Below are positions 28,819 to 29,382 of a stretch of 64,000 nt of DNA, one piece after another. The notes beneath the pieces are model-generated. The model saw nothing but the letters and a program-made list of their open reading frames with translations, was not told the origin of the DNA and ran no database searches. Made by a program: the position numbers and the translations under genes. Numbering within the stretch: the first letter of the stretch is position 1; every line of letters starts with the position of its first letter. The stretch is from positions 23,126,001 through 23,190,000 of the forward strand of contig JANJGN010000026.1 of the NCBI GenBank assembly GCA_026770705.1, written 5' to 3'. This DNA comes from Isurus oxyrinchus. Its lineage: Eukaryota.

Positions 28819-28857
28819 TGTTTTTGTATGGGGCCCCTTCTGGTTCCTGTCACTGTG
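28819..28857 (-). promoter_or_regulatory. 23-RSS (CACAGTG-23-ACAAAAACA)
   Basis: Counted directly. Confidence 0.95.
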
Positions 28858-29382
28858 TCTCTCAGCCCGCAGTAATATATCACGCTGTCAGACAACCGCA
28901 GGTCACGGATGGTGAAATTCCCCTCACTTTTCGAAGTGTCGAGAGATGCAGAAAATCGAGTCCCAATGCCATCGGCTTTGAAAACATCTCCATATTTAGG
29001 GATGTAGATCAAGAAGATTGGGGGTTTATCCCGGTCCTGGCGGTACAGTTGAATGTAATATGAAGCAGTTGAAGAAAATGAATAGCTGAACTTAATTGTC
29101 ACCTCATCTCCTTCAAATCGCATTAATGTAACCGGCTCTTGTGAGATGGAGTATGCACCTTGAATTTCTGCAGAAATTTATGCATACAGAAAGTTAATAT
29201 CTTATTTTATTGTCATTTTATGATAACTAGCAGCATAATGCAACAGATCACAATGTAGATAGAGGGAAACACCATTCAATGAATGTCAACGATTCCTGCA
29301 AGAGGAAGATTGTGTAACTTGTCGACTTACCGGGTAAGAGAGCTGCAGCTGTGAGAAATGAATAAAAAGCAAAAGCCAACAT
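28858..29382 (-). CDS. TCR V segment, non-canonical family D (Cys23->Phe, Trp41->Leu), structurally intact
   Basis: Leader 29331-29382 MLAFAFYSFLTAAALLP; GT-AG intron 29168-29330; open exon 28858-29167 (…VTIKFSY…YIQLYRQ…IYYCGLR). Confidence 0.92.

Follow-up and report, generated by a model that had tools for sequence, protein, structure and literature searches.

A germline-intact shark T-cell receptor alpha/delta V gene from a lineage without Cys23 and Trp41

Whether a T-cell receptor (TCR) V gene that lacks both Cys23 and Trp41 can be a normal rearranging segment is the question raised by the gene at 29382-28819, on the reverse strand of the window (the whole stretch of 64,000 nt analysed here, taken from contig JANJGN010000026.1 of Isurus oxyrinchus, hereafter C26). 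The IMGT rule for a 'functional' V gene, as worded in the section of PMC8559430 drawn on here, names Cys23, Trp41, Cys104 and a hydrophobic residue at position 89. Measured against this rule the gene fails at position 23, where alignment with canonical V genes places Phe (29090-29088), and at position 41, where it places Leu (29048-29046), but keeps Cys104 (28871-28869) and a hydrophobic residue at 89 (Phe, 28916-28914). Most canonical V genes have Leu at position 89, and the presence of Phe is a candidate core-filling change. By sequence and alignment, Cys104 is the sole Cys of the V exon, so that it is unpaired within the domain.

As a TCR alpha/delta V gene it is intact in all its parts. 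Its leader exon (29382-29331, 52 nt) extends from the ATG at 29382 to a phase-1 donor, a junction whose equivalent is spliced in a paralogue transcript, and is followed by an intron of 163 nt with GT and AG ends (29330-29168) and a V exon of 310 nt (29167-28858), the frame of which is open throughout and harbours a V-set domain, as indicated by sequence, structural model and Pfam (a V-set match of 3e-10). The recombination signal (RSS, 28857-28819) comprises the consensus heptamer CACAGTG at 28857, a 23-nt spacer and the nonamer ACAAAAACA ending at 28819, which is one base off consensus. In this way, the gene boundaries, intact splice sites and near-consensus RSS described in an earlier, sequence-only reading of this DNA are all borne out. 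Further upstream lie a putative TATA-like element (29459-29453) and a putative promoter stretch of 21 nt (29519-29499), which alignment reveals to be identical to 8636-8656 of the copy starting at 8783, and whose motifs we take to be CCAAT- and CRE-like. The same reading had treated this stretch as a conserved promoter motif; it is indeed identical in the two copies, but is not family-wide, with the strict pattern present in 8/33 intact and 4/41 broken family copies, and was rejected as a sign of function.

CDR1 (29078-29055) has 8 codons in the alignment, compared to 7 in most of the family, and the additional codon accounts for a V exon that is, as the earlier description had it, 3 nt longer than that of the 8783 copy (310 versus 307 nt). 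This length is ordinary V-gene variation, marking one subfamily within a large V array that is under ordinary birth-and-death turnover.

With regard to the genome as a whole, the family set derives from two genome searches and comprises 83 copies, 74 annotated and 9 truncated members of the gene's own subfamily; each figure is a minimum, and copies on unplaced contigs may duplicate those of C26. By the rules of this analysis 33/83 copies are intact (20/48 on C26) and 50/83 are broken, and many are near-identical to one another. Amongst 59 full-length family exons, position 23 is Tyr in 38, Phe in 20 and a stop in one, with Cys in 0/59; position 41 is Leu in 59/59, encoded through four codons, with Trp in 0/59; position 89 is Phe in 59/59; and at position 104 there are 56 Cys and 3 stops. 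Most intact copies display Tyr23 (30/33). The other V genes of the same genome keep both Cys23 and Trp41 in the alignment (23/23). Due to the fixation of the residue pattern in 59 copies, and its presence in other species, an assembly artefact was rejected. Truncation affects 9/12 copies of the gene's own subfamily, and its two further intact members carry Asn at position 39. In the nine truncated copies (L005-L013) a common insertion interrupts the sequence at codon 23, and this insertion has a 90 % match to window 23691-22323. In a different subgroup (L014, L073-L075 and L077-L082) the residue at position 43, two places past Leu41, is Cys; a simple CpG change may account for it, or it may provide a partner for the free Cys104.

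Within the window, an inverted duplication of approximately 64-70 % identity relates 1534-9628 to 36817-28343, making the genes at 8783-9324 (+) and 29382-28819 partners. The former is likewise an intact family copy (V exon 8979-9285), aligning with Leu41 and a 7-codon CDR1. It has Tyr23, however, so that in the description of the reverse-strand gene as a second Phe23/Leu41 gene the two residues stand, whilst the first copy is of another type. The neighbours duplicated alongside were described as dead in both blocks, and this applies to two pairs of V neighbours, both broken remnants: one of 7730-8250 and its upstream counterpart at 30386-29860 (-), the other of 2195-2591 and 36058-35470, in which piece 2195-2591, itself without a V protein match, was assigned by DNA likeness. 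The third duplicated segment (1534-2036 and 36817-36294) is not recognisable as a V gene. Purifying selection had been proposed for this family specifically (termed family D in that reading), a restriction that the window leaves unsupported on both sides. Two further family copies here are dead, one at 11549-11010 (-) by a shortened leader, an in-frame stop and loss of the nonamer, and one at 60956-60408 (-) by loss of the leader donor GT, its exon being open and its RSS good. Two canonical V genes in the window, at 14016-14579 (+) and 34765-35234 (+), have a leader, splice sites and an open frame.

Constant exons were labelled alpha or delta by our reading of stored proteins, and on this basis C-alpha has a single match in the genome, on contig C242, with 93 % identity to a Carcharodon carcharias protein stretch, in keeping with a lamniform shark; a coelacanth C-alpha used as query gave no match. 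The closest paralogue of the gene, L002, is also on C242, approximately 485 kb upstream of the C-delta there and in the opposite orientation to it; it is likewise upstream of the C-alpha. On C26, which holds the V array containing the gene, a C-delta-like gene is situated 6.7 Mb away and there is no C-alpha match; a scan of 200 kb beside this C-delta-like gene found no J or C-alpha. The two C-delta-like exons, L162 (C26:29902133-29902423) and L161 (C242:616927-617214), are approximately 86 % alike by hand count. The location of the C26 exon within the V array, with neither J nor C-alpha in the 200 kb scanned behind it, points to a duplicated delta cluster or to a problem of assembly.

Used alone, the V exon gave no match in word-index protein searches. 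An alignment search yielded 4 proteins, the two from bamboo shark being the only family members among them, and a full HMMER search identified two Chiloscyllium punctatum proteins, GCC45228.1 and GCC20152.1, with 62-64 % identity. These two genes and 16 family copies form one clade (support 100/99) in a tree of 98 columns that does not include nurse shark clones. Both proteins resemble the family in Phe23, Leu or Val at position 41, Phe89 and a V end of the same kind, with a read-through RSS after it; unlike the gene at 29382-28819 they have a 7-codon CDR1, and they are hypothetical proteins with no TCR annotation. Canonical shark TRA/TRD V genes have in common with the gene a leader, phase-1 intron, V exon, 23-RSS, array and predicted fold, but keep Cys23 and Trp41. 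NAR-TCR supporting V-delta genes have no leader of their own and an extra Cys in CDR1. That identity was rejected for the present gene, which has a leader and no CDR1 Cys, such genes forming a separate clade in this genome; an immunoglobulin V identity was also rejected.

The closest parallel is to the nurse shark alphaV10 family, for which Ott et al. 2018 (PMC5931798) list 45 C-alpha-primed clones with 29 unique V-J regions, labelled as from thymus and spiral valve, alongside a delta10 family. In the supplementary rows of that paper, compared by eye and ending before J, 43/45 combine Tyr23, Leu41 and Cys104 with junctions that vary, whilst the remaining two, alphaV10.2, have Phe23, Phe41 and a CDR1 one codon longer (8). 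The 45 rows thus match our gene in an aromatic residue at 23, Gln40-Leu41 (with the exception of Phe41 in alphaV10.2), Phe89 and Cys104-Gly. Additionally, alphaV10.2 shares with it both Phe23 and, in the authors' alignment, the 8-codon CDR1, but differs in Phe41 and in an extra Cys. Amino-acid identity to alphaV10.1 is approximately 61-64 % by hand count, which is below the 75 % family cut-off of PMC5931798, and the gene is therefore placed in the same lineage but in a separate subgroup. It is a new member of the shark V lineage known from the expressed alphaV10 sequences, for which two subfamilies are reported from nurse shark as against the 83 family copies examined in the Isurus oxyrinchus genome. 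A search of the text of PMC5931798 finds the word 'cysteine' in its primer table alone and no instance of 'tryptophan', and neither the literature listings nor term look-ups in PMC12227049 and PMC13433984 turned up a comment on a shark V family without both residues; an earlier notice of the double loss elsewhere in the literature is quite possible.

Loss of Cys23 is also known from salmonid TRAV1, which, in the account of Edholm et al. 2021 (PMC8559430) as drawn on here, has no other structural change reported, is represented by one or two genes per species and is joined to 72/118 J genes in productive transcripts. Both have lost Cys23, for which the shark family has an aromatic residue, but TRAV1 keeps the Trp41 that this family lacks. 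Since a Tyr23/Trp41 protein of Salmo trutta (P0143) groups outside the family clade in the tree, loss of Cys23 in salmonid TRAV1 was likely separate; on the same two grounds, the absence of Trp41 here and the position of P0143, kinship with TRAV1 was rejected. The VH of antibody ABPC48, cited in PMC5734687, is a further natural V domain without one conserved Cys, although it represents a single antibody and not a germline lineage.

No RNA dataset is listed as a holder of the V exon. In 7 distinct RNA-type runs there was no transcript or V-J join of the gene, and no V-J join of its paralogues, blanks being counted as no evidence: 5 runs were without a match, X13 contained only an RSS-like piece and X11 contained three paralogue contigs. 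The first of these contigs has the intron of an 8783-type gene spliced out, with the joint running from 8833 to 8979, and the third ends just before Cys104. The second has Tyr23 and a 1-base deletion, demonstrating that broken paralogues are transcribed too. The source organism of X11, the DNA runs of which hold 55-62 % of the V exon's words, may be another species. With regard to structure, AlphaFold2 predicts a V fold for the V exon without a J strand (pLDDT 93, TM 0.87 to V domains), a pLDDT that required the inclusion of canonical V genes in the alignment (56 before) and that is silent on stability. Searches of the ESM Atlas returned only generic V-set clusters.

The evidence for selection comes from the window pair and from the wider family. 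Between 8783-9324 and 29382-28819 the p-distance is 0.203 for the exon, 0.245 for the intron and 0.283 for the upstream pseudogene, and dN (0.22) is smaller than dS (0.37) and than the distances of the intron (0.30) and of the neighbouring pseudogene (0.36), which upholds the earlier proposal of purifying selection as far as this pair is concerned. Omega for the pair is 0.58 (0.35-1.01), with values of 0.45 (0.24-0.87) for the framework and 1.45 for the CDRs. Persistence of both copies under neutral decay is unlikely, both remaining stop-free in 1-2 % of simulations, and frameshift-free with a rough probability of ≤0.002, for a pair that had been chosen because it was intact. Our own codon model covered 38 distinct sequences, 25 intact and 13 from a dead-RSS subfamily, after identical rows were dropped, and scaled branch lengths per class without optimising them individually. 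On this footing, intact branches have an omega of 0.71 (p=0.011 versus 1), with 0.60 for the framework (p=0.0008) and 1.35 for the CDRs, and the dead subfamily has 1.18, with 1.06 for the framework, the intact and dead classes differing only at p=0.05. Purifying selection at the family level is real but weak.

We consider it probable, given these observations, that the gene, an intact germline TCR alpha/delta V of a shark lineage without Cys23 and Trp41, is a normal rearranging segment with a predicted disulfide-free fold; the lineage itself is likely functional. Leader-V splicing would be the first step, its signals being present here and the splicing itself being seen for a paralogue. RAG would then join the 23-RSS to J-alpha or D-delta, as published cDNA documents for the nurse shark relatives. 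The resulting V domain is predicted to fold with aromatic 23, Leu41 and Phe89 repacking the core around the free Cys104, in such a manner that aromatic 23 and Phe89 may take up the volume vacated by the disulfide and Trp41, with Cys104 probably a buried free thiol. The chain would pair with a beta or gamma chain and presumably signal like other alpha or delta chains. Antigen contact is expected through CDR1 and CDR2, in which amino-acid change is unconstrained while the framework is weakly conserved.

The recent history of the gene bears on a different reading, unlikely in our view although the most serious of the competitors, in which the lineage is functional but this copy has recently been relaxed and simply has no stop yet, its intactness reflecting past selection only. 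Exon divergence equal to that of the intron had been named beforehand as the outcome speaking against selection, and on the recent branch this is what is seen, with distances to the closest paralogues, L002 and L003, of 0.052-0.055 in the exon and 0.049 in the intron, and omega values of 0.79 and 1.01. On the gene's own branches, omega is 0.36 for the stem (p=0.11) and 2.1 for the tip, the latter not different from 1 and not below it, so that constraint, absent from this tip, is not shown for its recent history. The truncation of 9/12 subfamily copies and the lack of a transcript in the runs searched point in the same direction. Despite this, the recent comparison involves only 16-17 differences and has low power, every signal of the gene is intact, and 55-62 % of the V exon's words are present in the DNA runs of four studies. 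Relatedness amongst the copies could also mislead. Synonymous divergence between the window copies is patchy (0.15 in FR3, 0.47 in FR2 and 0.91 in FR1), which suggests gene conversion, and relative to L002 and L003 the gene body is 5 % diverged whilst the flanks are 10-12 % diverged; along with the many near-identical copies, this is consistent with intactness and low dN arising mainly from gene conversion or block duplication among paralogues and not from selection on each copy. We hold this to be improbable, as conversion would reduce both dN and dS, whereas the framework omega of intact branches lies below 1 and that of the dead subfamily in the same array is approximately 1, and selected donors would still be needed.

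It is also conceivable, if highly improbable, that the whole family consists of open-frame genes that are rearranged and transcribed but misfold and never form a working receptor. Failure at two of three IMGT hallmark residues would fit this, as would the lowered stability that disulfide loss causes in V domains according to the portion of PMC5734687 drawn on here, and the published support for the lineage is at the level of cDNA, which is not surface protein. Opposing this are the retention of the family in at least three shark species, the constraint on its framework and, in nurse shark, the groups of peripheral clones that have one common junction together with somatic mutation. The preferred reading of a normal rearranging segment can be taken further, to an old disulfide- and tryptophan-free shark TCR V lineage that has a rebuilt core (aromatic 23, Leu41, Phe89 and free Cys104) and is devoted to a separate T-cell function or class of ligand, with the Phe23, 8-codon-CDR1 subfamily and nurse shark alphaV10.2 descending from one gene kept across shark orders; this extension is speculative, and we regard it as doubtful.

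What is of interest here is the lineage-wide loss of both hallmark residues; taken alone, this one copy and the longer CDR1 are of minor weight. A rearranging V lineage without Cys23 and Trp41 breaks the rule for calling V genes functional, and annotation pipelines would therefore downgrade dozens of usable shark genes. The family is, moreover, a natural test of V-domain folding without the disulfide and core tryptophan, with a bearing on the design of antibody or TCR domains for reducing compartments.

A number of other elements accompany this family in the array and window. Mixing of Ig and TCR genes is expected in sharks, and an IgH-like V exon (L165:1348-1635, near 29.72 Mb on C26) is found inside the TCR V array. 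In the same genome, a V family of large size (L144, L147, L148, L150-L154 and L156-L159), with perfect RSSs and an additional Cys in CDR1, resembles NAR-TCR supporting V-delta. The window itself includes a stretch of 816 bases given as N (20704-21519), as well as three related repeat copies with inverted ends and 85-96 % identity (5459-7732, 26359-27465 and 62247-63400). At 61755-62054 (-) there is a V exon of another family, for which no leader was found, with an open frame, Ser23, Trp41 kept and a weak RSS. A weak RSS is likewise seen for the canonical gene at 34765-35234 (+), which by eye is like the alphaV9 rows in the nurse shark supplement. Finally, a decayed promoter and leader like those of the present family (39804-39376, -) lie upstream of a canonical V exon at 38560-38859.
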